Part shown: positions 4,753 to 51,980 of the stretch, piece after piece
How the letters are laid out: every line of letters begins with the position of its first letter
Numbering within the stretch: the stretch's first letter is position 1
Source: Eledone cirrhosa
Taxonomy: Eukaryota
Direction: 5' to 3'
DNA length: 64,000 bases
NCBI GenBank assembly: GCA_964016885.1
Contig: OZ024750.1
Span: 51,088,001 to 51,152,000, forward strand
Program-made: the position numbers and the translations under genes
Notes under the pieces: model-generated
What the model was told of the DNA's origin: nothing
Seen by the model: the letters and a program-made list of their open reading frames with translations, nothing else
Databases searched by the model: none

Positions 4753-4818
4753 TATTTTGTCTGAGGAAGGCATAGCATATTGTTAATATGATATCCCTGA
4801 AATATATATAATGAAATA
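4753..4818 (+). ncRNA. Type I hammerhead ribozyme motif
   Basis: UAUUUUGU-CUGAGGA-helix II (AGG..CAUAUU/AAUAUG..CCU)-GAAA-UAUAUA-UA-AUGAAAUA; 8-bp helix I. Confidence 0.82.
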
Positions 4819-4888: not shown

Positions 4889-5080
4889 GAACGAGTAGGA
4901 CGCCGACGGCTGAGCTCAAGCCAGTTTCGACGGCTAATTCTGGACTCCAGAATTAGCCGTCGAAACGGCTTGAGCTCACCCATCGAGGTCCTACTCGTTC
5001 CTATTACCCACTCTACTACCCTAAGTATTGAGTACTTTGGTGCGTTATGGTCCACTTGGTGCCTTACCACATTTCCTTCG

Positions 5081-6314: not shown

Positions 6315-6367
<53 letters not shown>

Positions 6368-6415
6368 ATAAATGCTCTGAAATATCGATAAAATCTCGAT
6401 AAAAGCACTGGATAT

Positions 6416-6458
6416 GTAGTCCTGAAGATTTCTAATAAGAATGAAACGCGTAGATTAC
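6416..6458 (+). ncRNA. Minimal type I hammerhead
   Basis: GUAGUC-CUGAAGA-U UUCU AAUA AGAA U-GAAA-CGCG-UA-GAUUAC; outer stem CUCGAUAAAAGCA/UGCUUUUAUCGAG. Confidence 0.9.
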
Positions 6459-6725
6459 TTCCCTTGCTTTTATCGAGAATCTAATTGTAATACGTGACGT
6501 ATTCTATTCTATAGCGATTAGGTCTTCAAAATGTTTATTATAAACATACAGAATATTTTCGAATATTCTATGTCTATATTCACATATATATCGCTATTTC
6601 AGAGCATTTATTCCAATTTCTAATTTCTGCCGGACCGGCAACCGCTCTTTCAAACCAGTTCCTGTACACAGCTAAGTATTCTATAAGTCTCTAGCTGTGT
6701 CATTCTCGATAAAAGCACTGGATAT

Positions 6726-6768
6726 GTAGTCCTGAAGATTTCTAATAAGAATGAAACGCGTAGATTAC
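6726..6768 (+). ncRNA. Minimal type I hammerhead (second unit)
   Basis: Identical to 6416-6458. Confidence 0.9.
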
Positions 6769-6890
6769 TTCCCTTGCTTTTATCGAGAATCTAATTGTAA
6801 TACGTGACGTATTCTATTCTATAGCGATTAGGTCTTCAAAATGTTTATTATAAACATACAGAATATTTTCGAATATTCTATGTCTATATT

Positions 6891-6927
<37 letters not shown>

Positions 6928-7694: not shown

Positions 7695-8000
7695 AGATAT
7701 ATATATATATAAAAACAAATAACGAAACGAAATTAAATTTCGTTTCGCTTCTAACTCACTTTTGTATGACTGACGCTTAAACAATTAAGTTAAAGTGTAC
7801 ATCTACATATGTATACGGAAGTATTAGTATGCATATAAATACACACATGTATACATATGTACATGTACTCAGCTTTTCACTAGACACTTTACAGTGAGTG
7901 TCAGCTAGTCTGTATGTAACCACACAGACGGACCGGGTTTTAGAGTCATACGGGTTTTCAAGGAAACACATTTCCTCTATTCTCCACAGGGCCAGACAGG

Positions 8001-8045
8001 AATATTGGACTAGTTTCGATGTTATTACATCTCATCAGCAATATT
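8001..8045 (-). ncRNA. Minimal type I hammerhead (GUC)
   Basis: Reverse complement of 8957-9001. Confidence 0.92.
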
Positions 8046-8463
8046 TACCCATCTTCCGGCTTCTCTGGAGAATTGTAAAAGCACATATCGTTATATGCTT
8101 TTTCTATGAAAATTAGTAGTGGGTAGACTAATTTGCATAGAACGTGAGTCAATGTACGCACCGGTTCAGCGGAAACGATAAAAACAAATAACGAAACGAA
8201 ATTTAATTTCGTTTCGCTTCTAACTCACTTTTGTATGACTGACGCTTAAACAATTAAGTTAAAGTGTACATCTACATATGTATACGGAAGTATTAGTATG
8301 CACATAAATACACACATGTATACATATGTACTCAGCTTTTCACTAGACACTTTACAGTGAGTGTCAGCTAGTCTGTATGTAACCACACAGACGGACCGGG
8401 TTTTAGAGTCATACGGGTTTTCAAGGAAACACATTTCCTCTATTCTCCAGAGGGCCAGACAGG

Positions 8464-8508
8464 AATATTGGACTAGTTTCGATGTTATTACATCTCATCA
8501 GCAATATT
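8464..8508 (-). ncRNA. Minimal type I hammerhead (GUC)
   Basis: Reverse complement of 8957-9001. Confidence 0.92.
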
Positions 8509-8956
8509 TACCCATCTTCCGGCTTCTCTGGAGAATTGTAAAAGCACATATCGTTATATGCTTTTTCTATGAAAATTAGTAGTGGGTAGACTAATTTGCA
8601 TAGAACGTGAGTCAATGTACGCACCGGTTCAGCGTAAACTGTAAAGTGTCTAGTGAAAAGCTGAGTACATGTACATATGTATACATGTGTGTATTTATAT
8701 GCATACTAATACTTCCGTATACATATGTAGATGTACACTTTAACTTAATTGTTTAAGCGTCAGTCATACAAAAGTGAGTTAGAAGCGAAACGAAATTTAA
8801 TTTCGTTTCGTTATTTGTTTTTATCGTTTCCGCTGAACCGGTGCGTACATTGACTCACGTTCTATGCAAATTAGTCTACCCACTACTAATTTTCATAGAA
8901 AAAGCATATAACGATATGTGCTTTTACAATTCTCCAGAGAAGCCGGAAGATGGGTA

Positions 8957-9001
8957 AATATTGCTGATGAGATGTAATAACATCGAAACTAGTCCAATAT
9001 T
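8957..9001 (+). ncRNA. Minimal type I hammerhead (GUC)
   Basis: AAUAUUG-CUGAUGA-GAUGU AAUA ACAUC-GAAA-CUAG-UC-CAAUAUU; outer stem AUUCUCCAGAG/CUCUGGAGAAU. Confidence 0.93.
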
Positions 9002-9236
9002 CCTGTCTGGCCCTCTGGAGAATAGAGGAAATGTGTTTCCTTGAAAACCCGTATGACTCTAAAACCCGGTCCGTCTGTGTGGTTACATACAGACTAGCTG
9101 ACACTCACTGTAAAGTGTCTAGTGAAAAGCTGAGTACATGTACATATGTATACATGTGTGTATTTATATGCATACTAATACTTCCGTATAAATATGTAGA
9201 TGTACACTTTAACTTAATTATATATATTTATATATG

Positions 9237-16123: not shown

Positions 16124-16379
16124 AATTCCATATATGGTAAAAGTGATTGTCACAAGGATTGGTCAAAAGTTTGTTGTTGAGACACATGATTCTATCATGG
16201 CATTTTGTGGAAGGTAGGGGTAGCTGAACTTGCCAGTAGAAGAAATAGGGAGAGGGAGTGGAGGAAACCTAGTCAAGCGTTGAAAGTGACAACTACAGCA
16301 GATTCTAAGGATAGAAAGTCGAAAAAAGAGAGTTTGATGGTATTTTTGTTGATTTAAATTCACCGATATTTTTTCCTGC

Positions 16380-17457
16380 ATTCGGCGGTGGATTGTACCG
16401 TGATGATGGGCTCCTTACCCTTAAAAGGTACAACCCCAGTAGTACAGACCGGGGCCGTAAACAATTAATCAGCTTCTTCCGCGACTGGAGATTTAAAATA
16501 ACCCTACAGACGTCCTTAACCCGAGTAAACTTCCTGGACATTACTCTTAACCTCGATAACGACCTGTACTACCCATACAGCAAACCAAACGACAACCTGC
16601 ACTACATCCACCACCGGTCGAACCATCCTAGAAACATCACCAATAACCTGGTTAAAAACATCTCCCTCCGCATATCTCGTTTGTCCGCTTATGAGCAGAT
16701 ATTCGAGGAACATGCGCCTTATTACAACCAGGCCCTCAAGTGGAGTGGCTTCCGGGAGGAAATATCCTATTGTCCAGCTTCCATTAGCGGAACCAGCAGG
16801 CCACACCGCCGCTGACGCAACGTAACTTGGTTCAATCCTCCCCACAATACCGAGGTGACAACAGCTGTCGGGAAAATCTTCTTTAGGCTCATCGAAAAAC
16901 ACTTCCCACAACAACACCGCTACCACAACGTAATCAACAAAAATACCATCAAACTCTCCTACAGCACCGCACCAAACTTAGCACAAAACATCGTCTCTAA
17001 CAACAAAAAACTCAACCCCTATGGAAGAAATAACCTAGATAGCAGCGGAGATCCGACCAGGAGGTGTAACTGTCCTGATGGATCCCTTTTCCCCCTCGAC
17101 AACAGATGCAGATATCGTAATGTGATCTACCAGTGCAATGTGAGGACGGACACCTCCAACAAAGCTTATATAGGATTAACCGCTTGTGACTTCAAGACCC
17201 GACTATACCAACACAGACATACTTTCCGGAACCCGGCCCGGCGTCACGTCACTACACTTTCGGGCCACATCTGGGACCTCAAAGATAACAATAGAACCTA
17301 TAATCTCACTTGGAGCTTACTGTCCAGAACCAACTCTTACACGGGAGGACGCCGTCCGTGTAACTTATGCTCGGAGGAAACATTACAAATGCTGTTTTCG
17401 ACTTACCAACTCAAACCCCATAATGACCCGGGGGGGGGGGGGGTAGACAAGGGCTGA
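16380..17457 (+). pseudogene. Penelope RT C-terminus plus GIY-YIG endonuclease (one internal stop)
   Basis: GLYRDDG, VNFLDITL, YIH..SNHP, WFNPP, KLSYS, NVIYQC..YIGLT, CNLC. Confidence 0.9.
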
Positions 17458-20859: not shown

Positions 20860-21054
20860 CACACATATACACATACATACACACACACACATATACACAT
20901 ACATATACACACACAAAACCTCATATATATTTACACACATATGCTTATACATATATATATATATAAATATGTATATTTATAATATATATGCAAAGTATAT
21001 AAAATATGTAGGAAAATGATAATATAAGCTAGACATATGAACAACAGAAACAGG

Positions 21055-24000
21055 AGAGAATAGAGAGTAATAGAGTGTAATGGAGAGTAATGGAGAGTAA
21101 TAGAGAAGAATAGAGAGGAATAGAGAGTAATGGAGAGTAATAGAGAGTAATAGAGAGGCATAGAGAGTAATAGAGAGTAATAGAGAGGAATAGAGAGGGA
21201 TAGAGAGTAATAGAGAGTAATAGAGACGAATAGAGAATAATCGAGAGTAATAGGGAGTAATGGAGAGTAATAGAGAGTAATAGAGAGTATTAGAGAGTAA
21301 TATAGAGGAATGGAGAGTAATAGAGAGTAGTAGAGAGAGATAGAGAGTAATAGAGAGTAAGAGAGAGTAATGGAGAGGGATAGAGAGTAATAGAGAGCAA
21401 TATAGAGGAATATAGAGTAATAGAGGGTAATGGAGAGTAATAGAGACGAATAGAGATGAATAGAGAGTAATAGAGAGTAATAGAGAGGAATAGAGAGTAA
21501 TAGAGAGTAATGGAGAGTAATGGAGAGTAATATAGAGTAATAGAGAGGAATAGAGAGTAATTGAGAGTAATAGAGAGGAATAGAGAGTAATAGAGAGGAA
21601 TAGAGAGTAATTGAGAGTAATACAGAGTAATAGGGAGTAATGGAGAGTAATAGAGAGTAATAGAGAGGAATAGAGAGTAATAGAGAGTAATAGAGCGGAA
21701 TAGAGAGTAATAGAGAGTAATGGAGAGTAATAGAGAGTAATAGAGTGTAATAGAGAGTAATAGAGAGGAATAGAGAGAAATAGAAAGTAATAGAGAGTAA
21801 TAGAGAGTGATAGAGAGTAATAGAGTGTAATATAGAGGAATAGAGAGTAATAGAGAGTATTAGAGAGAGATAGAGAGTAATAGAGAGTAATAGAGAGTAA
21901 TGGAGAGTAATAGAGAGTAATAGAGAGCAATGGAGTGTAATAGAGAGTAATAGAGAGGAATAGGGAGTAATAGAGAGTAATAGAGAGGAATAGAGTGTAA
22001 TAGAGAGTAATAGAGAGTAATGGAGAGTAATAGAGAATAATAGTGAGGAGTAGAGAGTAATATAGAGTAATAGAGAGGAGTAGAGAGTAATAGAGAATAA
22101 TGGAGAGTAATAGAGAGTAATAGAGTGAAAGAGAGAGTAATAGAGAGGAATAGAGAGGAATAGAGAGGACTAGAGAGTAATAGAGAGTAATGAAGACTAA
22201 TAGAGAGCAATAGAGAGGAATAGAGAGGAATAGAGAGTAATAGAGAATAATGGAGAGTAATAGAGAGTAATAGAGTGTAATATAGAGTAATAGAGTGTAA
22301 TAGAGAGTAATAGAAGTAATAGAGAGGAATAGAGAGCAATAGAGAGGAATAAAGAGGAATAGAGAGTAATAGAGAGTAATAGAGAGGAATAGAGAGTAAT
22401 GGAAAGGAATAGGGAGTAATAGAGAGTAATAGAGAGTAATATAGAGTAATAGAGAGTAATGGAGTGTAATAGAGTGTGATAGTGAGTAATAGGCAGGAAT
22501 GGAGTGTAATAGATAGTAATAGCGAGTAATAGAGAGTAATGGAGAGTAATAGAGAGTAATAGAGAGTAATGGAGAGTAATAGAGAGTAATGGAGAGTAAT
22601 AGCGTGTAATAGATAGTAATAGAATGTAATAGAGAGTAATAATGAGTAATGGAGTGTAATAGAGAGTAATAGAGAGTTAATGGAGTGTAATAGAGAGTAA
22701 TAGAGAGTAATGGAGAGTAATGGAATGTAATAGAGTGTAATAGAGAGTAACAGAGAGTAATGGTGTGTAACAGAGTGTAATAGAGAGTAATGGAGAGTAA
22801 TAGAGAATAATGGAGAGTAATGGAGAGTAATGGAGAGTTATGGAGTGTAATGGAGTGTAATAGAGAGTAATAGAGAGTAATAGAGAGTAATGGAAAGTAA
22901 TGGAGAGTAATGGAAAGTAATAGACAGTAATGGAGTGTAATAGAGAGTAATAGAGAGTAATTGAGAGTAATGGAATAGAGATTAATAGGGAGTAATGGAG
23001 AGAAATAGAGAGTAATAAAGAATAATAGAGAGTAATAGATACTAATAGAGTGTAATAGAGAGTAATAGAGAGTAATAAAGAGTAATGTAGGGTGATAGAA
23101 TGTAATAGACAGTAATATAGAGTAACAGAGAGTAATAGAGTGTAATAGAGAGTAATGGAGAGTAATGGTGAGTAATAGAGAGTAATAGAGTGTAATAGAG
23201 AGTAATTGAAAGTAATAGAGAGTAATAGAGAGTAATATAATGTAACAGAGAGTAATAGAGTGTAACAGAGAGTAATACAGTAATATAGAGTAATAGCGAG
23301 TAATAGAGTGTAATAGAGAGTAATAGAGAGTATTAGAGAGTAATATAGAGGAATAGAGAGTAATAGAGAGTAGTAGAGAGAGATAGAGAGTAATAGAGAG
23401 TAAGAGAGAGTAATGGAGAGGAATAGAGATTAATAGAGAGCAATATAGAGGAATATAGAGTAATAGAGGGTAATGGAGAGTAATAGAGAGGAATAGAGAT
23501 GAATAGAGAGTAATAGAGAGTAATAGAGAGGAATAGAGAGTAATTGAGAGTAATACAGAGTAATAGGGAGTAATGGAGAGTAATAGAGAGTAATAGAGAG
23601 GAATAGAGAGTAATAGAGAGTAATAGAGCGGAATAGAGAGTAATAGAGAGTAATGGAGAGTAATAGAGAGTAATAGAGTGTAATAGAGAGTAATAGAGAG
23701 GAATAGAGAGAAATAGAAAGTAATAGAGAGTAATAGAGAGTGATAGAGAGTAATAGAGAGTAATATAGATGAATAGAGAGTAATAGAGAGTATTAGAGAG
23801 AGATAGAGAGTAATAGAGAGTAATAGAGAGTAATGGAGAGTAATAGAGAGTAATAGAGAGCAATGGAGTGTAATAGAGAGTAATAGAGAGGAATAGGGCG
23901 TAATAGAGAGTAATAGAGAGGAATAGAGTGTAATAGAGAGTAATAGAGAGTAATGGAGAGTAATAGAGAATAATAGTGAGGAGTAGAGAGTAATATAGAG

Positions 24001-27000
24001 TAATAGAGAGGAGTAGAGAGTAATAGAGAATAATGGAGAGTAATAGAGAGTAATAGAGTGAAATAGAGAGTAATAGAGAGGAATAGAGAGGAATAGAGAG
24101 GACTAGAGAGTAATAGAGAGTAATGAAGACTAATAGAGAGTAATAGAGAGGAATAGAGAGGAATAGAGAGTAATAGAGAATAATGGAGAGTAATAGAGAG
24201 TAATAGAGTGTAATATAGAGTAATAGAGTGTAATAGAGAGTAATAGAAGTAATAGAGAGGAATAGAGAGCAATAGAGAGGAATAAAGAGGAATAGAGAGT
24301 AATAGAGTGTAATAGAGAGGAATAGAGAGTAATGGAAAGGAATAGGGAGTAATAGAGAGTAATAGAGAGTAATATAGAGTAATAGAGAGTAATGGAGTGT
24401 AATAGAGTGTGATAGTGAGTAATAGGCAGGAATGGAGTGTAATAGATAGTAATAGCGAGTAATAGAGAGTAATGGAGAGTAATAGAGAGTAATAGAGAGT
24501 AATGGAGAGTAATAGAGAGTAATGGAGAGTAATAGCGTGTAATAGATAGTAATAGAGTGTAATATAGAGTAATAATGAGTAATGGAGTGTAATAGAGAGT
24601 AATAGAGAGTTAATGGAGTGTAATAGAGAGTAATAGAGAGTAATGGAGAGTAATGGAATGTAATAGAGTGTAATAGAGAGTAACAGAGAGTAATGGTGTG
24701 TAACAGAGTGTAATAGAGAGTAATGGAGAGTAATAGAGAATAATGGAGAGTAATGGAGAGTAATGGAGAGTTATGGAGTGTAATGGAGTGTAATAGAGAG
24801 TAATAGAGAGTAATAGAGAGTAATGGAAAGTAATGGAGAGTAATGGAAAGTAATAGACAGTAATGGAGTGTAATAGAGAGTAATAGAGAGTAATTGAGAG
24901 TAATGGAATAGAGATTAATAGGGAGTAATGGAGAGAAATAGAGAGTAATAAAGAATAATAGAGAGTAATAGATACTAATAGAGTGTAATAGAGAGTAATA
25001 GAGAGTAATAAAGAGTAATGTAGGGTGATAGAATGTAATAGACAGTAATATAGAGTAACAGAGAGTAATAGAGTGTAATAGAGAGTAATGGAGAGTAATA
25101 GAGAATAAGAGTGAGGAGTAGAGAGTAATATAGAGTAATAGAGAGGAGTAAAGAGTAATAGAGAATAATGGAGAGTAATAGAGAGTAATAGAGTGAAATA
25201 GAGAGTAATAGAGAGGAATAGAGAGGAATAGAGAGGACTAGAGAGTAATTGAGAGTAATAGAGAGGAATAGAGAGTAATTGAGAGTAATACAGAGTAATA
25301 GGGAGTAATGGAGAGTAATAGAGAGTAATAGAGAGGAATAGAGAGTAATAGAGAATAATGGAGAGTAATAGAGAGTAATAGAGTGTAATATAGAGTAATA
25401 GAGTGTAATAGAGAGTAATAGAAGTAATAGAGAGGAATAGAGAGCAATAGAGAGGAATAAAGAGGAATAGAGAGTAATAGAGTGTAATAGAGAGGAATAG
25501 AGAGTAATGGAAAGGAATAGGGAGTAATAGAGAGTAATAGAGAGTAATATAGAGTAATAGAGAGTAATGGAGTGTAATAGAGTGTGATAGTGAGTAATAG
25601 GCAGGAATGGAGTGTAATAGATAGTAATAGCGAGTAATAGAGAGTAATGGAGAGTAATAGAGAGTAATAGAGAGTAATGGAGAGTAATAGAGAGTAATGG
25701 AGAGTAATAGCGTGTAATAGATAGTAATAGAGTGTAATATAGAGTAATAATGAGTAATGGAGTGTAATAGAGAGTAATAGAGAGTTAATGGAGTGTAATA
25801 GAGAGTAATAGAGAGTAATGGAGAGTAATGGAATGTAATAGAGTGTAATAGAGAGTAACAGAGAGTAATGGTGTGTAACAGAGTGTAATAGAGAGTAATG
25901 GAGAGTAATAGAGAATAATGGAGAGTAATGGAGAGTAATGGAGAGTTATGAAGTGTAATGGAGTGTAATAGAGAGTAATAGAGAGTAATAGAGAGTAATG
26001 GAAAGTAATGGAGAGTAATGGAAAGTAATAGACAGTAATGGAGTGTAATAGAGAGTAATAGAGAGTAATTGAGAGTAATGGAATAGAGATTAATAGGGAG
26101 TAATGGAGAGAAATAGAGAGTAATAAAGAATAATAGAGAGTAATAGATACTAATAGAGTGTAATAGAGAGTAATAGAGAGTAATAAAGAGTAATGTAGGG
26201 TGATAGAATGTAATAGACAGTAATATAGAGTAACAGAGAGTAATAGAGTGTAATAGAGAGTAATGGAGAGTAATGGTGAGTAATAGAGAGTAATAGAGTG
26301 TAATAGAGAGTAATTGAAAGTAATAGAGAGTAATAGAGAGTAATATAATGTAACAGAGAGTAATAGAGTGTAACAGAGAGTAATACAGTAATATAGAGTA
26401 ATAGCGAGTAATAGAGTGTAATAGAGAGTAATAGAGAGTATTAGAGAGTAATAGAGAGGAATAGAGAGTAATAGAGAGTAGTAGAGAGAGATAGAGAGTA
26501 ATAGAGAGTAAGAGAGAGTAATGGAGAGGAATAGAGAGTAATAGAGAGCAATATAGAGGAATATAGAGTAATAGAGGGTAATGGAGAGTAATAGAGAGGA
26601 ATAGAGATGAATAGAGAGTAATAGAGAGTAATGGAGACTAATAGAGAGTAATAGAGAGGAATAGAGAGTAATTGAGAGTAATAGAGAGTAATAGGGAGTA
26701 ATGGAGAGTAATAGAGAGTAATAGAGAGGAATAGAGAGTAATAGAGAGTAATAGAGCGGAATAGAGAGTAATAGAGAGTAATGGAGAGTAATAGAGAGTA
26801 ATAGAGTGTAATAGAGAGTAATAGAGAGGAATAGAGAGAAATAGAAAGTAATAGAGAGTAATAGAGATTGATAGAGAGTAATAGAGAGTAATATAGAGGA
26901 ATAGAGAGTAATAGAGAGTATTAGAGAGAGATAGAGAGTAATAGAGAGTAAGAGAGAGTAATGGAGAGTAATAGAGAGTAATAGAGAGCAATGGAGTGTA

Positions 27001-28595
27001 ATAGAGAGTAATAGAGAGGAATAGGGAGTAATAGAGAGTAATAGAGAGGAATAGAGTGTAATAGAGTGTAATAGAGAGTAATGGAGAGTAATAGAGAATA
27101 ATAGTGAGGAGTAGAGAGTAATATAGAGTAATAGAGAGGAGTAAAGAGTAATAGAGAATAATGGAGAGTAATAGAGAGTAATAGAGTGAAATAGAGAGTA
27201 ATAGAGAGGAATAGAGAGGAATAGAGAGGACTAGAGAGTAATAGAGAGTAATGAAGACTAATAGAGAGTACTAGAGAGGAATAGAGAGGAATAGAGAGTA
27301 ATAGAGAATAATGGAGAGTAATAGAGAGTAATAGAGTGTAATATAGAGTAATAGAGTGTAATAGAGAGTAATAGAAGTAATAGAGAGGAATAGAGAGCAA
27401 TAAAGAGGAATAAAGAGGAATAGAGAGTAATAGAGAGTAATAGAGAGGAATAGGGAGTAATAGAGAGTAATAGAGAGTAATAGAGAGTAATAGAGAGTAA
27501 TGGAGTGTAATAGAGTGTGATAGTGAGTAATAGGTAGGAATGGAGTGTAATAGATAGTAATAGCGAGTAATAGAGAGTAATGGAGAGTAATAGAGAGTAA
27601 CAGAGAGTAATGGTGTGTAACAGAGTGTAGTAGAGAGTAATGGAGAGTAATAGAGAATAATGGAGAGTAATGGAGAGTAATGGAGAGTTGTGGAGTGTAA
27701 TGGAGTGTAATAGAGAGTAATAGAGAGTAATTGAGAGTAATGGAATGGAATAGAGTTTAATAGGGAGTAATGTAGAGAAATAGAGAGTAATAAAGAATAA
27801 TAGAGAGTAATAGATACTAATAGAGCGTAATAGAGAGTAATAGAGAGTAATAAAGAGTAATGTAGGGTGATAGAATGTAATAGACAGTAATATAGAGTAA
27901 CAGAGAGTAATAGAGTGTAATAGAGAGTAATGAAGAGTAATGGTGAGTAATAGAGAGTAATAGAGTGTAATAGAGAGTAATTGAAAGTAATAGAGAGTAA
28001 TAGAGAGTAATATAATGTAACAGAGAGTAATCGAGTGTAACAGAGAGTAATACAGTAATATAGAGTAATAGCGAGTAATAGAGAGTAATAGAGAGTAATA
28101 GATTGTAATAGAGAGTAATAGAGAGTAATTGAGAGTAATAGTGAGTAATAGAGAGTAATAGAGTGTAATAGAGTGTAATAGAGTGTAATCTAGAATAATA
28201 GAGAGTAATAGAGTGTAATAGAGAGTAATATAGAATAATAGAGAGTAATAGAGAGTAATAGAGTGTAATAAAGAGTAATAGAGAGTAATATATAGTAATA
28301 GAGACCAATTGAGAGTAATAGAGAGTAATAGAGAATAATAGAGCGTAACAGAGTAATAGAGTGTAATAGAGAGTAATACAGTAATATAGAGTAATATAGA
28401 GTAATAGAGAGTGATAGAGAGTTACAGAGAGAAATAGAGAGTGATAGAGTGTAACAGAGAGTAATATAGAATAATAGAGAGGAATAGAGAGTAATAGAGC
28501 GTAATAGAGAGTAATAGAGAGTAATATAGCGTTATAGAGAGTAATAGTGAGTAATTGAGAGTAGTAGAGAGTAATAGAGAGTAATAGAGAGTAAC
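21055..28595. repeat. 10-bp satellite (TAGAGAGTAA)n with higher-order duplications
   Basis: The same variant block recurs at ORF-track anchors 22339, 24272, 25447 and 27400. Confidence 0.97.
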
Positions 28596-29319: not shown

Positions 29320-31900
29320 CATACGAAATAAGTGAGGGTTCCCTTGAGACTGTGATAAGAAAACTCCAAGATAAGAAAACACCAGGAAGAGACATGATTG
29401 TCGGCTACTGGTACAAAAAACTAATATTCAATCGGAGGTAACTTACTGACCTCTACCAACAAGTTCTTAAGGGAGATACACTTATACCAGAATGGTTGAC
29501 ATTAACACAAACATTACTGGTCCCCAAGAACAAAGACACTCACTTGGCAAAAAACTACCGACCCATTGCATGCCAGAACCTCATGTATAAGATGTATACA
29601 GCCTGCCTCAACCTATTCGTCCAAGATCACTGTGAAAATAATAACATCATCACAGATGAACAAGCAGCTGGAAAGAAAAGGGTTTGGGGATGTGCTGATC
29701 ACCTTCTAATCAACAAAACTGCGATGTCGGAGGTGCGACAACTTAGGAGGAATATGACTACAGTCTGGCTGGACTACTTTAAAGCTTTCGATTCTGTTCC
29801 TCACTCTTGGATGATAGAGGCCCTCCAACTTGCTAAAGTCCCAGACATTATTGTCAGAGCCATAGAGAGGCTGTCTTCTTCTTGGGCTACTATCCTTAGG
29901 TTAAAGACAGAGAGGGAGGACTCTATTTTCACTGATAAAATAAAATATTGCAGGGGTATATTTCAGGGGGACAGTCTCTCTGTGATATTGTTCATCTTGT
30001 CATTAAACCCCTTGTCGTTTCTGCTCAAGAATTGTGAGGGATACATCACTGACTCAGAGGAGGACAGAAATACGAACCTAACCCATAACTTCTTTGTGGA
30101 CGATCTGAAACTCTATGCCAAGAACATGGATGGGATGAAGAAAAATCTTGACCTCGCTACAACGTTCTCAAAGGATATAGGAATGGAATTTGGCCAAGAT
30201 AAATGATCATACATGACTGTAAAGCGGGGGAAAACAACAGCCCAATCTAGCAACATTGTCATCAATGGTCTAACTGTTTCACCGATATCTGATCAGGACT
30301 GCTACAGATACACGGGGATGGATGAGAACATATCCTATAATGGTATCTGTAATAAAGAACACGTAACTAGGGAATACTACACCCGATTAAGAAAGATCTG
30401 GTCATCGGAACTCTCTGCGCAAAACAAAACAGTGGCTCACAATGTGTTTGCTGTGCCTGTCCTAACACCAACGTTTGGAATACTCAATTGGACGATAGAC
30501 GAAATCCGAGCAGTTGATGTTGGAACTCGAAAAATACTGAACAACACCGGAAACTTCCACATCAACAGTGACATAGACCGCCTTTACTTGAAACATAAGC
30601 AGGGATGCAGAGACCTTACATCAGTCCAGACAACATTTGAATGTCGCATCATATCTCTCCGACAACATCTACGAACCTTGAAGCGTAGGAGCCCGCTTCT
30701 CAAGCAAGTCTATCTGCATGAAACAGATAAGATCATGAGAGTTGGGAAGGAACTCCTTGAGAGATATTCCCTGTGTGATAATCAAAAACTCAAAACCAGG
30801 GATGTCGCTCAGCAGTATCGCAGTGAATCCATGGATGAAAAACAGCATGCCTATCAGCAAAAATTCATGCATGGATATGTTGCCAGGAAGCTCCAGAGCG
30901 AGAGTAATATAGATAAGGAAAGTAGTCTATCTTGGACCAACAACCGCTATATTGGCTCCCACTTTGAAGGATACGCTTTTGCAATCCAAAACAGGAGATT
31001 AGCACGAAATACCTGATTCACAAAAGAGATAAGGATGCAGGCAAAACACCTAGATGTGATAACAAGTGCAGGCTCTGCAGAACTAACATAGAGGATATCA
31101 CCCATGTAAGCAGCAGCTGTCCAAAGATGTCATCGCGGTACTATCTAACTATGAGGCATGATGTAGTGGCCAAAACACTGTACAATGCAGTTCCTAAAAA
31201 AGATAGCCCTGATAATAAACACATTAAAAGCTACAACAATGTGGAAGACATCCATGTGCATAATATGAAAAAGTACTAGTAGAATGTTCCAGTAAAAACC
31301 CCAATAAAATGCAGGCATAACAGACCAGATATTATGATATGGGACAGGGAGAAGAAAACATGCACAGTAGTGGAAATTAGCTGCCCAGCAGATGCCAATA
31401 TAATATCAAAGATTAGTGAAAAGGAGAATATTTATGCAGAACTGATGAGAAATCTGCAGATACTCCAACCTGATTACACCTTCAGATTTATGCCTGTGAT
31501 TATTGGGGTACTGGGATATGTTAGTAACTGCCTCAATACAAATCTTGAGAAGCTAGGCTTCACAGGAACAGAAAGAACACAACTAGTTAGGAAATTACAA
31601 GTACAATCCATTAATGGAACAGTAAAAATATGTAAACATTCCAAAAATGTTGCATTTAATAACTGCATATACACATGTACAGTTACAAAGCATACACACA
31701 TGCACACACACAACTCAAAACATACACATCCACACATACAATAACATCCATATCTACACATGCATACATACATATCTACCTAGTTGATGTTGTGTAAATT
31801 CCAATGAGAGAGTCTTGTGTCTATGTTAGAAACCGACTCTCTATTGGTAAAACTTTGTGAAATTATGAAACCAGAAGAACATACATACATACATACATAC
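29320..31900 (+). mobile_element. 5'-truncated RLE-type non-LTR retrotransposon (R4/Dong-like)
   Basis: RT, CCHC and restriction-like endonuclease motifs; ends in (CATA)n. Confidence 0.85.
29330..31660 (+). pseudogene. RT-CCHC-RLE ORF of the R4/Dong-like LINE (stops and frameshifts)
   Basis: NYRPIAC, WLDYFKAFDSVPH, GIFQGDSLS, FVDDLKLY, CRLC..H....C, RHD, RPDI..VVEISCP. Confidence 0.88.
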
Positions 31901-32126: not shown

Positions 32127-35100
32127 CTGGCAGTTTAGCCCGGCGTTGCTCGGGTTTGTTCATTTAGCTATGAAAAGTTACATACAGGTAAACGTGGCTT
32201 GAAAGCGAATAAGCTTATCAATTAAGTGCATAAAGCAGTTGAACCGGTTATTAAAAGTTACGAACCAATTAGCATTTTGGACAATCAATGATGGGTTAAT
32301 AATCTTCCAATAGCGAATTTTGTAGACAAAAGTTGTAAGATGGTGGCGCTGATGCCGCTGGGTGTCAGATCTGCCCTACTAGGAAATAGTTTTCCAGACG
32401 GCATAGCTCCAACACCGCCAACACCTTCACCCACATCTATAGCACCTCTTTGTAGACGATATTGCGTTTCATCCCTTGAGCACTGTAAGCAAAAAGTCCA
32501 TTCCTGCTCCCTACTCGGGAAACAGGCAAGATAAAGTTGGCCATGGGAGAAGCATGGCTCCTCCAAATGGATGCCCGCCACCGACAATGTTTGCCCTTGT
32601 GACTTGTTAATGGACATGGCAAACATGGTCTCACCGGGAATTAGGATCGCCGGAAATCGAACGGGATATCTGACGCCGAGGGGAAAAGGTTCATCCTTCG
32701 AATGAAAACATTCTATCCTCTCCCGCACCCGTTACAATGGTGGCCTCAATCAAGTGGGGCGTCAGTAACTTGACGATCATGCGAGTACCGTTGTACTGCT
32801 TTGGTGGACGCAAGTTCCTTATTAGCATAATGGGACAGCCAACCCTAAGCTTAAGAATGTGAGGTGGGAGTCCTAGGGGCTCAAGGGAATTTAATAACTC
32901 AACCGGATAATTAACGATATCGTCGGGATCTGACGTCCAGTCGATAGATTTGAAGATGGCTCTTTACTGGGAATCTTCTCAATCAGCTGCTCGTTAATAA
33001 AATTAACCATGGTATTTTTCGGTGCAAGGATGGCTCTTTCGCTGAGCCAATTGAGGTTTTTAAAGTTAGATGAGACATTAGGAAAAACTGCTTCCCAAAG
33101 GTCAGAAGGGCTGCTCACAATATTGCACAGGGAGTCGATTGCTATGCCGCCCTTGTCATCCGCAAGGACCTTGCCCTCACCAAGTGCTAAAATGTTCTGA
33201 GCAAATGCTGCAGACATGTTGTCACCATGCAAATGAGCACGCATATTTGTGCTCAGGTACAAACTCTTAAACTGGAGCCACAACATGGACGATTTAAGGC
33301 AGGCACGCACTTTATCAGCTCTTGTCTCTTTGGGGATGACAGGCAGCGTTTGCCGAAAATCCCCTGATAGCAGAAAGGTTACGCTAACCATAGGAGCCGT
33401 AGAATCCCTAATGTCTTTCAGGGTCCTGTACAATGCACCCTTCTGTGCCATTGTGCGCTCATCTTAAACAATTAGGCAACATTTTTTGAGAACCAGAGCT
33501 TCGTGTGAACTCTCGCTGATATTGCATGTTGGTGTCTCAGTTTTTACTAAATCCAAGAGGAGTTTAAAAGCTGAATGTAGATAATGTCACTGTAACCAAC
33601 TTCCACTGAAGGATACTTCAGATGATCCAGGCGCAGGAAGTCCTCAGACATGAAGTCTCTGTACTGGACCCATAAAGATTTGGGATCACCCAATTCACAC
33701 TTTTGAAGCAAAATGGCAAAGAGTTCCCGTAGACTTTTAGGTGATTTCAACAAAGCACCATCTGCTAAAGTGGAATCCCATTGCGAATCATCTTCCAAAA
33801 CACCACGCTTAAAGCAGGCTTCCTGGTACGTATCACATATTTCTCCATCAACAGTTTTGAGGTTCTGAAAACTTTGTGGGCCTACAACTTCATGCAGAAG
33901 AAGGTGGAGATGAAAGCAATCATGCTGACTTGGAGGCACAGTGTAAACCCTTCCAAGACAGCTGTCAGATTTTACACCAGGGTGTCTTTCAACAGCCTGA
34001 CCTGACTTTCTTCGCACACAAGTGTTTTTCGACCATATAAAGTAGGATGGAACCTGGGGGTACACAATTGTTTGCGCAAATATATCCAACTGGCAAAGTT
34101 TGAAGAACCCCGTCAGAGTGGTCTCTTTCGGATCGGTGGCCAACTTGGTGACGGTTTGGTCCGTAAAGTAAACCCTTTGCCCATTTTCCAAATGTACCAC
34201 AAGCTGTACGATGGTGGGGTGCCGTTGGTGTAGGGGTAAACCAAATAAGCGCCAAAAAGCTTCATTGCTACTGATGTACCGCCCCGCCAGGTATTCTATG
34301 ACCTCCTCCCTGCTATTTTCAGCTTGAAATGCGAACATTGCGGCATCAGAGAGCCCTTATTTAGATATTTGTATATGTATTTTATCGACTTGAGGGAGTT
34401 GCAAAACTCAACGTTGATGTGAGCGTTGAAGATCGCCAAGAGAAGCGGGCAGTAAGGGACCACCCATCTATTGTCGACTTGGCCTCTCTTTACTGTTGTG
34501 GTGAAGCCACCGTTCTCCGGCCGTCTCCGCCTGTACAGGGGGTACCCGTCGCCACGAGTCTGAGTCTGGTCAACAAATTTTTGGGGGTATCCCTTACTGC
34601 ACGACCCCCCTTTCAGACAGGTGTGATGCTCATTAGGATCCGACGCACACGGACCATGTTAGCTTTGACGATGTCATGTAATTCATGGTCAGTTGCTGGG
34701 TTAGGGATTTCAGCCAAAATGAAGCTGTCTATGGCATTTGAATTGATTTTATCAGCTCACCAAATCAAAATGTCAGCATGTGGCAGCCCTCGTTTTTGCC
34801 ATTCGACGGTGAACATGTCACATTTTACAGCCCCATATACCTGACTCTTTTTGATTAAAGCCATGAGTTTAGCCAGTTTCAGTCTGAACACTTTGGCAAT
34901 GAGGTCATGTCTGTTCGAATAATTTTTCCCATGAAAAAGTTCACGGGTTACATTCCGATTCATATGTCTATAGCATTAATCTGTTATATGAAGTGGTATT
35001 TTGCAGGTTGTTATTTGCAATAAGCCGATTGAAAATGCCCCAGATAAGCCGTATGTCAATATGGAACGCTCCACTGCAGTGTTGTCATATAGGGAGTGAA

Positions 35101-36409: not shown

Positions 36410-37142
36410 GTGTATATATATATATATATTATATATATATTATATATATATAAATGTATATATATATAGAGATTCGATTTTACTGATTTCCAATTATATT
36501 ATTTAATAATTAACTAATTAATTTAATTAGACAATTCTGTTGATTGGTTAATTATTAGTGTTTGTTTTATAACATCTAGTCGAGAGCTTATCATGATGAT
36601 TAGCGGAAATTTAAAATATTTCCTTTCGCTAACATTTTGAATGAACCGCCTGGGACCGGGGGTTATTTCCCTTGCCGGAATTAACACGTGATAATTATAG
36701 ATACGATAAGCAGCATGTAGCAGCAACATATAATTTATCACTCCTATCCTAGGAAGAGCGATATACCTTTTGATAAACTGAATCCTACGTTCGAACCCCA
36801 ATACCATGAGCTTGCCTTTCAAGTAAGTCTGATATTTGATTTCGGATTCAAAGAAACACTTTAAACTATTGTTCGTTTAATTTGTCCAGGTGTACTTTTA
36901 TAAACCTGATTAGTTTTATCGTTGCTTTGGTATGTATTGTGTTAGTTTAGCCTACCACAATGTTCGATTTGTCAAGCTATTTAAACGTATGTTATTACTC
37001 TAAGGCCCTACCTTATCGAGCGCTTTGCTAACTCATCACTTCATATAAGTAGGCCGAATTTACTTGCAAACCGCCAGAGATTCGATTTTACTGATTTCCA
37101 ATTATATATATATATATATACATATATTATATATATAACGAT

Positions 37143-37331
37143 ATAACGAAGGAGGTGTGGTAAGGAACCATATGGACCATAAAGTATACTTAGGGTAGTA
37201 GAGTGGGTAATAGGAAAATGTTTAAGCCCGACGGCAGAGCTCAAGACGTTTCGACGGCTATTTCTGGAATGAGTCCAGAAATACCCGTCGAAACGGCATG
37301 AGCTCTGCCGTCGGGCTTAAATATTTTCCTA
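37143..37331 (-). mobile_element. Half-hammerhead fold-back pLTR copy (diverged subfamily)
   Basis: Homologous to 4886-5082; the plus-strand arm has helix III CGGCA/UGCCG. Confidence 0.75.
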
Positions 37332-37350
37332 TATATATATATATATATAT

Positions 37351-37881
37351 ACTGTTGGTACTTTCTGAGGAACACCAACAGTGTGAAACAGAATCTGTCA
37401 ACTTCTCTCCCTTCCTTTGCCGAAAAGAGAAGTAAGTGACATAGTCACTACTTTAAAATGATAGCGCAAGGTTTTCAAAATGTTTTTAATTAAACATACG
37501 GTATATTACCAAATATATTATACATACATTCATGTACATATCGCTATTTCAGAGTACCAATCCTAATTTTTAATTTTTGCTGGACCGGCAATAGCTCCTC
37601 ATTAGTTCCTGATTATTACTGGAATTCTATAAGAATCCAGCCTCTATAATTTTCGGCAGAGGTCAGGGAGTGCGTTGCTCTGAGGAACACCAACAGTGTG
37701 AAACAGAATCTGTCAGCTTCTCTCCCTTCCTTTGCCGAAAAAAGAAGTAAGTGACATAGTCACTACTCTAAAATAATAGCGCAAGGTCTGCAAAATGTTT
37801 TTAATTAAACATACGGTATATTACCAAATATATTATACATACATTCATGTATACATCTCTGTTTCAGAGTACCAATCCTAA

Positions 37882-37890
<9 letters not shown>
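37351..37890 (+). mobile_element. Retrozyme-like tandem array (315-bp unit) in (TA)n
   Basis: HHR cores at 37365 and 37680; body homologous to the 310/312-bp family. Confidence 0.85.
37677..37717 (+). ncRNA. Type I hammerhead (GUC); a second copy lacking helix I at 37365-37399
   Basis: GCU-CUGAGGA-ACAC CAACA GUGU-GAAA-CAG AAU CUG-UC-AGC; outer stem UUUCGGCAGAGG..AGGGAG/CUCCCU..CCUUUGCCGAAA. Confidence 0.9.
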
Positions 37891-37913
<23 letters not shown>

Positions 37914-38008: not shown

Positions 38009-39867
38009 ATGGAAAGGCATCATATAGGTATGTCACTTAAAAACATACCTATACATAACAAAAGGGAATACATTCTTGGTATGATACAACGCAATAACGA
38101 CTTTATTCGGCGTGTACGATGGAAGTCTTTCCATTTCGAAAAGGGACACGCCAGTCACTCGTCTGAATCATATGGTTTTAAATCATGTAAAACCCCACCC
38201 ACAAACCCCCATCTGGATGCTTTGGAACAAGACTTAATGAATACGGCCATGAATATTAAGTTTACCAAACATAGAAGTAATGAGCTGCAGAGCAACATGA
38301 AAGCACTACTCCGAAGACTGCAAAATACCAATGGAATTGTTGTGAAAGCGGACAAGACCTCTAACGTGTATACCATGGATATCGATACGTACAACAGCTT
38401 CATACGCAAAGAACTACATAAGAAATATAGAAAAACAAATGGAACTACGCTAGCAAATATTAACAAAGAGGCATACATGGTGGTGAAGAATCTCAGGATA
38501 GACGAACCGAGCTGATTATACCCGCTACCCCCACCTTCAACCTGAAGGACCATAAGGTAAATTTTGACTCTAACCCTAAGATTAGACTTATATACCCTTC
38601 TAAATCAGACATAGGAAAAATTAACAAATATATACTTGACAGAGTAATAATTCAATTGAAAAAGAAAATAGAAATTAAATTATGGGGCAACACTAGCGAA
38701 GCAATTCGCTGGTTTAATAACGTTAAGAATAAGAATAAATCTAAGTTTATACAATTTGACATAGACGAATACTACTCTTCAATCTCACCCGGCACTTTAC
38801 ATAAGGCCCTATCGTTTGCTAAAGTCAATTCCGACCTAACGGAGCACGAAATTAATATTATTCTAGAGGCTAGAAAAACTATTATCAAGTTTGATAACTG
38901 CTACTGGGAACGTAAGGACAGACCCACAAACTTCGACATTACCATGGGCTCCAACGACTCAGCGGAGGTCACCGATCTTGTGGGAATTTACATAGCCCGC
39001 ATACGACATGGTATATTTAGTAATCTACAGGGGGGAATATAAAGAGATTACGGGTTCTTATTAGTTAATAACTTAAATAACCAAAATCTTGAAAGGCTAC
39101 GGAAAAACATTAGAAAATCTTTTAGTGAACTGGGTCTAAAAATAACGTACGAATATAATCTTAAAGTAGTAAATTTTCTAGACGTAACTCTTAATTTAAA
39201 TACCGGACTGATACGACCCTTCCACAAGATAAATTAGAACCTTACCTATATCAATTTTAACTCAAACCACCCACTTTCCATGATCAAATCGGTTCCCTGT
39301 AGTATTTCTCTTAGAATCTCTCGCTTATCGTCTGACTCTGAGATTTTCAGTGAACATGCAGAATACTATAATAATGCATTAAGGAATGCCGACCACCGGA
39401 ATACAATAGAATACATTGATAAGTATCTCCATAACACACATAGCTCTACACGAAATCAAAGATTACGTAACCGGGGTACAGAAATACAAGCTCACACACG
39501 CAGTACCACCAGACATACTAATAATAGAAAATCATCACCAAATAAATCACGTTGTAGAAAGTATATCTGGTATAATCCCATTTTTAATGCTTCGATTAGT
39601 ACAAAACTATCTCTTTCATTCTTTAAGTTAATCAACAAACATTTCCCTAGTTCTCATAAATACAGTAAAATTCTGAACTCTAAAACTCTTAAACTATCAT
39701 ACTCCACAGCACCAAACCTTGAAGCATACATACCTAAACTTAACTTAAAGCAATTAAACAACACTACAAAGCAAATTATTTTAATAACAGATGAGCATAA
39801 CATAGTATCGGCTCTAGAAACAGCAGTCAAGACAACTAGAAACAGCAGTCAATTCTTTTCAAATTAA
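38009..39867 (+). pseudogene. Penelope-like RT ORF (N-terminus to thumb; frameshifts and stops; GIY-YIG missing)
   Basis: SLKNIP, RRVRWK, KADKTSN, QFDIDEYYSSI, ITMGS.DSAE..DLVG, VNFLDVTL, SNHP, WYNP, KLSYS. Confidence 0.88.
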
Positions 39868-40461
39868 ATTTAGATTAAATTCACTTTGATTTATCTTAAT
39901 TTTGGATATAGATATATAAATACGGCTCCTTAATTGTAGAGCTAACTCTGTTTCTAATTGTCGATAACCATATTCAGGCCACTGGGACGAAGCTGGTATG
40001 ATGTGTGTATTTTTAGTAGATACAGCACGTGTTACTGGCCAGTCGCTGATTTGAACTTAATGCGTAAACACAGATGGCTGGACTTCTTCCTTGTTGAAAA
40101 TCCAAGTATCGGCCTACGTGGTTTACCATTCGATTAATTGGTGAAATATATTTCTTTAATGGAATATATACAGGGAAGATAAATCATATTATAAGGTATC
40201 TATTTTTGAAGTTCTAGTTAACTTTATTTAGTTACCTACCTAGCTATGTGTGCTTACACACTTGTAAAAATTATCCCCTGTGATTGATTCATATGTTTAT
40301 TTATATGTTAATCAATTTCTATTTGTTATAAAATGCTCGGACCTATTCATTAGAATCTTGGAGCTTATTTTACGGGTGATATGGTGCATGCCTTTCTGGC
40401 ATGACACCCATAATTTTGATTTAGATTAAATTCACTTTGATTTATCTTAATTTTGGATATA

Positions 40462-49484: not shown

Positions 49485-49529
49485 TTCCTGATGATTTCTC
49501 CCGAATGAAACAGTTCTAGTCCTGTAGAA
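49485..49529 (+). ncRNA. Type I hammerhead in an ~90-bp insert between (TA)n tracts
   Basis: UUC-CUGAUGA-U UUC UCCC GAA U-GAAA-CAG UUCUAGUC CUG-UA-GAA. Confidence 0.78.
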
Positions 49530-49809: not shown

Positions 49810-49862
49810 CGACTATATATTCCCAACTGTTTTCAAGTCCAGCAGTCGCAATTGTGGGAGGG

Positions 49863-49906
49863 ATCGCCCTGATGAGAACCAGTTCAGTTCGAAATGCATC
49901 GACGAT
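49863..49906 (+). ncRNA. Minimal type I hammerhead (AUC)
   Basis: AUCGCC-CUGAUGA-GAAC CAGUUCA GUUC-GAAA-UGCA-UC-GACGAU; outer stem UCCAGCAG/CUGCUGGA. Confidence 0.85.
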
Positions 49907-50058
49907 TGTCTCCCTTGCTTCTGCTGGACACTACCAGAGGGCGTTAACCCCGGTGTTTTTTGTATAGCTACGGCTTTCTAAATGTTTATCTGTAAACATA
50001 TACGAAATTTCTATACATATCTGTATACAGCTATGCCTGAAACTAAATTATAATTCTA

Positions 50059-50097
<39 letters not shown>

Positions 50098-50318: not shown

Positions 50319-50408
<90 letters not shown>

Positions 50409-50560
50409 AATGCTCTGAAATAGCGATATATATGTGAAGACAAACATAGAATATTCGAAAATATTCTGTATGTTTATAATAAACATTTTGAAGACCCAAT
50501 CGCTATAGAATAGAATACGTCACGTATTACAATTTGAGATTCTCGATAAAAGCAAGGGAA

Positions 50561-50603
50561 GTAACCTACGCGTTTCATTCTTATTAGAAATCATCAGGAT
50601 TAC
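50561..50603 (-). ncRNA. Minimal type I hammerhead
   Basis: Reverse complement of 51434-51476. Confidence 0.9.
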
Positions 50604-51121
50604 ATATCCAATGCTTTTATCGAGAACGACACAGCTAGAGACTTATAGAATACTTAGCTGTGTACAGGAACTGGTTTGAAAGAGCGGTAGCCGGTCCGGC
50701 AGAAATTAGAAATTGGATTTAATGCTCTGAAATAGCGATATATATGTGAAGACAAACATAGAATATTCGAAAATATTCTGTATGTTTATAATAAACATTT
50801 TGAAGACCCAATCGCTATAGAATAGAATACGTCACGTATTACAATAGGTTACTTCCCTTGCTTTTATCGAGAATCTCAAATTGTAATACGTGACGTATTC
50901 TATTCTATAGCGATTGGGTCTTCAAAATGTTTATTATAAACATACAGAATATTTTAGAATATTCTATGTTTGTCTTCACATATATATCGATATTTCAGAG
51001 CATTAAATCCAATTTCTAATTTCTGCCGGACCGGCTACCGCTCTTTCAAACCAGTTCCTGTACACAGCTAAGTATTCTATAAGTCTCTAGCTGTGTCGTT
51101 CTCGATAAAAGCATTGGATAT

Positions 51122-51164
51122 GTAATTCTGATGATTTCTAATAAGAATGAAACGCGTAGGTTAC
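51122..51164 (+). ncRNA. Minimal type I hammerhead
   Basis: GUAAUU-CUGAUGA-helix II-GAAA-CGCG-UA-GGUUAC. Confidence 0.88.
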
Positions 51165-51433
51165 TTCCCTTGCTTTTATCGAGAATCTCAAATTGTAATA
51201 CGTGACGTATTCTATTCTATAGCGATTGGGTCTTCAAAATGTTTATTATAAACATACAGAATATTTTCGAATATTCTATGTTTGTCTTCACATATATATC
51301 GCTATTTCAGAGCATTAAATCCAATTTCTAATTTCTGCCGGACCGGCTACCGCTCTTTCAAACCAGTTCCTGTACACAGCTAAGTATTCTATAAGTCTCT
51401 AGCTGTGTCGTTCTCGATAAAAGCATTGGATAT

Positions 51434-51476
51434 GTAATCCTGATGATTTCTAATAAGAATGAAACGCGTAGGTTAC
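51434..51476 (+). ncRNA. Minimal type I hammerhead
   Basis: GUAAUC-CUGAUGA-U UUCU AAUA AGAA U-GAAA-CGCG-UA-GGUUAC. Confidence 0.92.
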
Positions 51477-51745
51477 TTCCCTTGCTTTTATCGAGAATCT
51501 CAAATTGTAATACGTGACGTATTCTATTCTATAGCGATTGGGTCTTCAGAATGTTTATTATAAACATACAGAATATTTTCGAATATTCTATGTTTGTCTT
51601 CACATATATATCGCTATTTCAGAGCATTAAATCCAATTTCTAATTTCTGCCGGACCGGCTACCGCTCTTTCAAACCAGTTCCTGTACACAGCTAAGTATT
51701 CTATAAGTCTCTCGCTGTGTCGTTCTCGATAAAAGCATTGGATAT

Positions 51746-51788
51746 GTAATCCTGATGATTTCTAATAAGAATGAAACGCGTAGGTTAC
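51746..51788 (+). ncRNA. Minimal type I hammerhead
   Basis: Identical to 51434-51476. Confidence 0.92.
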
Positions 51789-51908
51789 TTCCCTTGCTTT
51801 TATCGAGAATCTCAAATTGTAATACGTGACGTATTCTATTCTATAGCGATTGGGTCTTCAAAATGTTTATTATAAACATACAGAATATTTTCGAATATTC
51901 TGTTTGTC

Positions 51909-51980
<72 letters not shown>

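Follow-up and report, generated by a model that had tools for sequence, protein, structure and literature searches.

The window, meaning the whole 64,000-nt stretch of DNA analysed here, is AT-rich animal DNA rich in (TA)n tracts and pieces of retroelements. An insertion on its plus strand (37352–37889) consists of 1.7 head-to-tail copies of a 315-bp retrozyme unit and has (TA)n on both sides (target tracts at 37330..37351 on the 5′ side and 37888..37913 on the 3′ side, neither assigned a strand). The period of 315 is seen when 37364–37574 is aligned with 37679–37889; the two segments are 94.8% identical, with 11 differences. The insertion has no ORF of at least 120 aa, and inspection by eye showed no LTR-like arrangement around it. 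Its 5′ end carries 8 nt of the element's own tail in inverted orientation (37355..37362, minus strand), abutting the core of the first hammerhead ribozyme (HHR); we infer that this piece is a 5′ inversion of the type made by Penelope-like elements (PLEs). The first HHR (37365..37405, plus strand) is without the 5′ arm of helix I, and with an active fold 15.6 kcal/mol above the MFE it is probably inactive. The second (core at 37680) has a predicted active fold 4.1 kcal/mol above the MFE. In the part of their preprint drawn on here, Li et al. (2026; bioRxiv 10.64898/2026.07.22.740005) call a retrozyme "active" when two consecutive units have complete HHRs. Such a pair is present in the 310-bp and 312-bp arrays described below, whose HHR cores are intact, and is absent from the 315-bp array. 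Because only one of its HHRs is intact, this genomic copy is probably unable to release a monomer on its own.

From one predicted cut site to the next, the monomer (37400..37714; plus strand, as are all parts of the unit given below) is 315 nt long, with 36% GC. Folded as a circle it has an MFE z of −3.75 (30 shuffles) and is 64% paired; the antisense strand has a z of −4.16. The first hairpin, H1 (37430..37453), lies inside the block most diverged from the 312-bp family (37427–37470), where identity is 27% and no better than in shuffles (P = 0.32). It is followed by ATAGCG (37461..37466), which pairs with CGCTAT at 37542–37547. The most conserved block (37471..37499) is identical to the 312-bp family at 25 of 28 positions and holds the AATGTTT/AAACAT hairpin H2. 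In hairpin H3 (37500..37519), 8 pairs are retained across the 315-, 310-, and 312-bp families, with one double and two single changes. The segment 37533..37574 contains the main 3′ end of insertions, which follows a short TA-like stretch and lies directly after 37541, and then the tail, some 30 nt long and beginning CGCTATTTCAGAG; the segment is a candidate priming and recognition site. A GC-rich triloop hairpin, GCYG-GAC-CGGC (37579..37589), of which a near match occurs in a 463-bp HHR family too, and a hairpin with a conserved TTCTATAAG loop and a variable stem (37619..37640) complete the body.

The whole HHR module occupies 37650..37741. It is made up of an outer stem (37650–62/37729–41), helix Ib (37665–70/37722–27), helix Ia with two U–U (37674–79/37715–20), the core (37680–37686), helix II, ACAC/GUGU (37687–90/37696–99), GAAA (37700–03), and helix III, ACAG/CUGU (37703–06/37710–13), with a predicted cut after GUC at 37714. 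A descriptor scan of the window gave 21 matches, against 0–2 in each of 20 shuffles. Among them were one HHR of the 315-bp element, two of the 310-bp array, four of the 312-bp array, and the one at 49869; the first 315-bp HHR (37365) was not picked up because its 5′ arm is absent. With its full core and three helices, the 315-bp HHR is of type I by this descriptor, and the helix II, CAG/CUG helix III, and GUC that a preliminary description had read from the letters were all recovered. The Rfam search returned no hammerhead match for it at E ≤ 10. Matches to Rfam HH9 were all below threshold (32 bits in the 463-bp family and 20.6 bits in the 312-bp family, with a gathering score of 52), and Rfam miRNA matches in the window were rejected as hairpin noise.

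The window contains three relatives of the 315-bp element. A 310-bp array (6362..6901, plus strand) has two HHRs with a palindromic ACGCGU helix III, and it begins with a piece of the tail in inverted orientation (6362–6390). A 312-bp array (50400..51921, no single strand assigned) has four HHRs and an inversion at 50845; its copies are 98–99% identical, and the inverted piece occupies 50400–50845. The third is a single 5′-truncated copy (49820..50062, plus strand; HHR core at 49869) with a palindromic AUGCAU helix III and a cut after AUC.

The body that the preliminary description had seen as common to the 315-bp unit and the 310/312-bp family is indeed shared. The local alignment of the 315- and 312-bp bodies scored 150 (z = 27.7), a value reached by none of 1000 shuffles (mean 27, maximum 46) and by none of 2398 window segments (maximum 61), so that the similarity stands well clear of the AT-rich background. 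All the named motifs were found: in the 315-bp element CGCTATTTCAGAG lies at 37542, GGACCGGC at 37582, TTCTATAAG at 37625, and the AAATGTTT..AAACAT hairpin at 37478/37793. The pattern of this hairpin had 10 matches in the window, all within the 315-, 310-, 312-bp, and 49820 elements, and the named motifs as a whole were confined to these families within the window, except for one stray TTCTATAAG. Body patterns were found at 0 loci in viral contigs and 0 in the prokaryote genomes searched. Seven metagenome loci with body patterns were set aside as chance matches: only the pattern aligned (best E = 3e−4), and there was no unit-length match.

The insert at 49820 has a third HHR upstream of the same hairpin, as had been described, and its kinship is weaker than was implied. 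Its body is 50–52% identical to the others in a truncated copy, with a score of 57 (z = 7.5) that lies under the window-background maximum of 61; nhmmer gave E = 1.5e−4, and a body-only model E = 0.0044. Where the 315-bp unit pairs ATAGCG with CGCTAT, this insert has ATAGCT/AGCTAT, a compensatory change. Its module differs in bulge geometry and gave no trustworthy alignment to the other modules. The insert is a real, distant relative of the 315-, 310-, and 312-bp elements.

A further HHR family with a 463-bp unit (7709–9219) is arranged in tandem and inverted copies, with three HHRs, a palindromic ACUAGU helix III, and a circular fold z of −10. Its body has no significant similarity to those of the 315- and 312-bp families (z −0.7 to 0.9) and is absent from the results of the body-only model. 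Loop 2 (TAATAA) and the TTCTC/GAGAA end of a stem are common to it and the 310/312-bp families (nhmmer E 0.03–0.07), and it carries a GCTG-AAC-CGG hairpin. A 14-base pattern taken from the corresponding hairpin of the 310-, 312-, and 315-bp families (≤2 mismatches) had nine matches, all in HHR arrays; three of the nine were in the 463-bp family versus 0.26 expected, a figure that is optimistic, as the edges of the pattern were picked after the 463-bp family had been seen. An isolated HHR (49488–49526), 18 nt before (TA)n, has a helix II like that of the 312-bp family (TTTC/GAAT) and a helix III like that of the 315-bp unit (CAG/CTG); its arms are unlike those of the 315- and 312-bp families.

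The HHR and outer stem of the 315-bp unit had been said to differ entirely from those of its relatives. That reading arises because plain local alignment shows no similarity between the 315- and 312-bp modules (z = 1.0; 182 of 1000 shuffles were as good), nor did single module arms align better (p 0.07–0.52). When the modules were aligned by their pairing, starting at the HHR core, and the core and helix III were left out of the count, 36 of the remaining 69 positions were identical, with 25 transitions, 8 transversions, and three indels. The 13-bp outer stem had 17 of 26 positions identical, 9 transitions, and 0 transversions; eight of its pairs were unchanged, four had compensatory changes, and one went from G–U to A–U. 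Pair-shuffling nulls for this stem gave P = 0.0014/0.00012 with flipping and 0.0012/0.0006 without it. Judged by these sequence comparisons, the outer stem is homologous between the two families, and to speak of a different ribozyme module is an overstatement: the identity of the module (36/69) is not significantly below that of the whole body (138/221; Fisher p = 0.16), although it is lower than that of the conserved body part (126/177). The block most diverged between the two units is the body hairpin H1, not the HHR. Double changes occur in 15 of 74 pairs across the monomer, in body and module alike, a count in which three rows represent two lineages and which is thus near to one pairwise comparison and not an R-scape result; two to three independent lineages in all were aligned full length.

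The preliminary description had left two possibilities, module swapping or deep covariation under selection on RNA structure. The comparison supports covariation and leaves module swapping unneeded. We consider it likely that the 315-bp and 310/312-bp families and, more distantly, the 49820 insert go back to a single non-LTR retrozyme ancestor as complete units, with their ribozymes.

Helix III is the only structural change in the HHR. It is palindromic in the 310-, 312-, 463-bp, and 49820 elements and a non-palindromic 4 bp in the 315-bp element, which differs from its relatives by a 5-nt indel and a change of type, from dimer-type (310, 312, and 49820) to monomer-type. Palindromic helices are therefore predicted to depend on dimers for cleavage, and that of the 315-bp unit to allow cleavage as a monomer. 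The 10.1–11.1 pair is A–U in the 315-bp family, U–U in the 310- and 312-bp families, and G–C in the 49820 insert. The canonical metazoan type I HHR, as outlined in the relevant part of PMC4209133, has a 6-bp helix I, a 4-bp helix II, a short palindromic helix III, and G10.1–C11.1. The 315-bp HHR agrees with it in helix I and II geometry (six positions in Ia, of which four are pairs and two U–U, and 4 bp in helix II) but not in the palindromic helix III or G10.1–C11.1.

One 315-bp period was compared with 4 of 9 public runs at 80% likeness. Matches were obtained in organism A (3951 contigs and 3966 reads), organism B (21 contigs), and organism C (4 contigs). The variants visible among the matches listed comprise 40 of 166 substitution rows and, for loose ends, 24 of 376 rows; the variants from reads consist of short, unphased ends of consensuses, with an agreement of 0.59–0.82 for the three multi-record consensuses cited here. 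In run X1, summed word depth, which is not treated as copy number and comes with the bias of a RAD library, was 250–375 thousand at the body peaks and 4.8–22 thousand on the HHR core. A non-ribozyme linker (37588–98), as variable as the HHR, had a depth of 10 thousand. Seven of 15 joints among those listed linked one part of the body to another past an unlike module; their left edges were staggered over 37648–37672. Because core depth is far under the body peaks and joints skip the module, we conclude that the HHR module varies faster than most of the body.

Among the rows listed, the visible variants are graded, and the predicted pairing is kept in the outer stem, helix I, and helix II. One organism B contig (record 12, attributed to this organism from its depth, 6.85) combines G37655A with C37736T in the outer stem and, in helix Ia, G37674T with C37720A, with both U–U pairs repaired. 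Two organism B contig ends have a perfect 15-bp alternative outer stem. A helix II of ACGC/GCGU with a 6-nt loop was present in 205 raw reads; to judge from its letters this variant probably has a 3-bp helix III, an intermediate, and one organism C contig has the same 3′ half. The 315-like outer stem was joined to the GTAGTC helix I strand of the 310-bp family in 42 contigs, and 23 contigs had the bulge-less spacing of the 312-bp family. Several loose-end consensuses had a damaged HHR core. Joints that go back 315 were found in two organisms.

A swap of the inner HHR cassette (helices Ia, II, and III; about 50 nt) from another retrozyme or PLE lineage by template switching of the reverse transcriptase (RT), with the outer stem retained, would also produce a diverged ribozyme on a shared body. 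The inner helices alone are not demonstrably homologous (in Ia and II, 8 of 20 positions agree, P = 0.18; for transversions, P = 0.077), and a 6-bp/4-bp geometry such as theirs is general among metazoan type I HHRs in the portion of PMC4209133 referred to above. Arm identity between the 315- and 312-bp families (0.52) is no higher than to the 463-bp family (0.44–0.52). The 5-nt indel and change of type in helix III would fit such an exchange; the inversions show template switching at these loci; and the rarity of the module relative to the body among contigs, with body-to-body contigs bypassing it, is what a swap predicts likewise. The loop 2 and stem end that the 463-bp family shares with the 310/312-bp families stand on an unalignable body (5′ arm, p = 0.018–0.094), but a control PLE HHR arm scored p = 0.038, nearly as good as the 463-bp arm. 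Against the exchange, the outer stem is homologous, the pooled inner stems have an excess of transitions (8 transversions vs. 16.5 expected, P = 0.0096), intermediate steps of Ia, II, and probably III occur among the relatives, and the joint edges are staggered. The transition share in the arms is 0.77 between the 315- and 312-bp families and 0.40 between the 315- and 463-bp families. We regard the exchange as unlikely, and ribozyme swapping is not supported.

Block mixing among the variants could also be recombination. Homologous recombination or conversion among subfamilies might shuffle H1, the linker, and helix I on top of covariation, and 315-like and 310-like blocks are indeed combined in variants (42 and 49 contigs). 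H1 cannot be aligned between the 315- and 312-bp families, yet it is common in the run, and depth is uncorrelated with 315–312 identity (rho 0.20, p = 0.29). The same patterns are expected, however, if the copy in the window has derived states, and we hold such a mosaic to be quite unlikely. It is very improbable that the families are an old dispersed satellite evolving at the DNA level, whose pairing and HHRs are relics free of selection: the 315-bp copy has 5% divergence between units, a truncated first HHR, and U–U pairs in helix I, its antisense folds as well as its sense strand (z −4.2 vs. −3.8), several loose-end consensuses have damaged cores, and 8 of 9 Xenopus elements failed to cleave in the part of the Li et al. 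preprint on them (bioRxiv 10.64898/2026.07.22.740005), but compensatory double changes between and within subfamilies, the intact cores of the 310- and 312-bp arrays, the near identity of the 312-bp copies, and the (TA)n ends that stay fixed across thousands of contigs imply selection at the RNA level and for retroposition.

Insertion ends in the reads joined (TA)n at 37541 (240 reads) and 37567 (204 reads), and the arrays of the window end in the same zone. Inverted pieces stand at the 5′ ends of the 310-, 312-, and 315-bp arrays, and opposite-strand joints are seen repeatedly in the runs. The section of PMC8557442 consulted describes as marks of PLEs the partial tandems, the inverted copies at the 5′ end, a 30–40-bp tail, and (TA)n targets. 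The best reading is that the superfamily was moved by a (TA)n-targeting Penelope-like element. The 315-bp unit shares (TA)n targeting, partial tandems, the inverted 5′ copy, a 30–40-bp tail, and an HHR with Hydra-clade PLEs (PMC8557442, in part) and with PLE-derived retrozymes (bioRxiv 10.64898/2026.07.22.740005, in part); it differs from them in having no ORF, and it has no similarity to the PLE remnants of the window. The similarity to a PLE terminus by which the preprint, in its relevant part, recognises a pLTR derivative was found nowhere within the window for the 315-bp unit.

Directly after the 315-bp array, in the same TA-rich stretch, comes a decayed ORF of a PLE (38009–39864) that has the RWK and DKT motifs of the Hydra clade; a 45–55-bp direct repeat lies at 39868 and 40419. 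A second PLE remnant, with YIG, is at 16315–17457. Since Pfam gave no family for 7 of 8 ORF pieces, including all PLE remnants, the Hydra label comes from motifs only. Seven HHRs of PLE type were found at 4761, 3764 (minus strand), 36192, 35942 (minus strand), 7552, 48798, and 63754. Helix II is long in these HHRs and helix III is rich in TA; the distance from their ends to the following (TA)n is roughly 50 or 137 nt, and some form inverted pairs.

The published retrozyme cycle runs through transcription, HHR cleavage, circle ligation, and copying (PMC7229834, in the part that describes it). By analogy with the retrozymes of coral, mussel, and axolotl, multimeric transcripts would be cut at GUC every 315 nt and the monomers ligated to circles. 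A PLE endonuclease/RT would nick (TA)n, prime at the TA-like stretch before CGCUAUUUCAGAG, and copy more than one unit, finishing in a truncation with inversion. On this reading the HHR depends on nothing beyond its core and the pairing of its stems, so the stems turn over by compensatory change, mainly through transitions and G–U steps. Sequence is conserved in those motifs of the body that lie close to the 3′ end or in the loops of hairpins, most plausibly because a PLE or host protein reads them. Several diverged subfamilies retain specific motifs of the body on either side of an invariant 3′ end and tail, and these motifs offer candidates for recognition and priming by the PLE RT/endonuclease, and the superfamily is a natural library of compensatory HHR variants, from palindromic to stable helix III.

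A bolder version makes these elements modular RNA replicons, in which a PLE-read body carries an exchangeable hammerhead cassette that toggles between dimer-dependent and monomer-competent cleavage; we think this doubtful. The body read in this way would consist of the TA-primed 3′ end, the tail, and two hairpins, GCYG-RAC-CGGY and TTCTAT, which even the 463-bp family would have in common although its body cannot be aligned. If true, it would mean natural ribozyme swapping and a first map of the cis-signals for a PLE reverse transcriptase.

As a retrozyme, the 315-bp element is ordinary. On the features tested, its family fits the metazoan non-LTR retrozymes. As characterized in the part of PMC7229834 used here, these have in common with it a short non-coding tandem unit of 150–450 bp, a GC content below 50%, a type I HHR in each unit, and PLEs in the same genome; their monomer is self-paired (Cervera and de la Pena 2020). 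The 315-bp copy differs from that description in its one intact HHR and its non-palindromic 4-bp helix III, and it is known here as DNA sequence. The presence of two types of HHR on similar repeats has a direct, already published precedent in the axolotl, compared here by description. According to the same portion of PMC7229834, HHR_Amex1 and HHR_Amex2 occur in one genome on "slightly different" repeats of 330 or 350 bp and differ in helix III and in a U–U at the base of helix II. This U–U is also found in the 312-bp family; both axolotl HHRs prefer dimers, whereas one type here has a 4-bp helix III. The hammerhead satellite pDo500 of Dolichopoda likewise belongs to an HHR repeat family in which stems I and II have changed in a compensatory way (PMC2837043, relevant part), but there the remainder of the unit is less conserved than the HHR, the reverse of what we found for the stems and most of the body.

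A 2020 review reports no conserved motif in metazoan retrozyme repeats that would indicate the mobilising element (PMC7761336), and the giant squid paper, in the passage concerned, only counts hammerhead matches (PMC6962438). Searches of mostly open-access literature on retrozymes, hammerheads, and Penelope elements of octopus and cephalopods gave no description of such a family. The novelty lies in a candidate map of cis-signals for PLEs, together with a ribozyme that varies faster than most of its body.

Other repeats occur in the window. A small element with an internal inverted duplication lies upstream of the insertion (37138–37332), and related copies are near 4903, 16013, 18690, 45151, 48962, 58953, and 60321. 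ORF pieces at 32285–34658 (minus strand) resemble a Helitron helicase, and the repeat at 55405 we take to be an octopus SINE-like sequence, which would make the DNA that of a cephalopod, probably an octopod. A LINE-type RT remnant was identified at 29442–31744 (Pfam RVT_1, E = 4.8e−20). Two satellites complete the inventory: one at 1–2406 with 63 copies of a 38-bp unit, and one at 21054–28594 with 757 copies of a 10-bp unit and an extreme GC skew.
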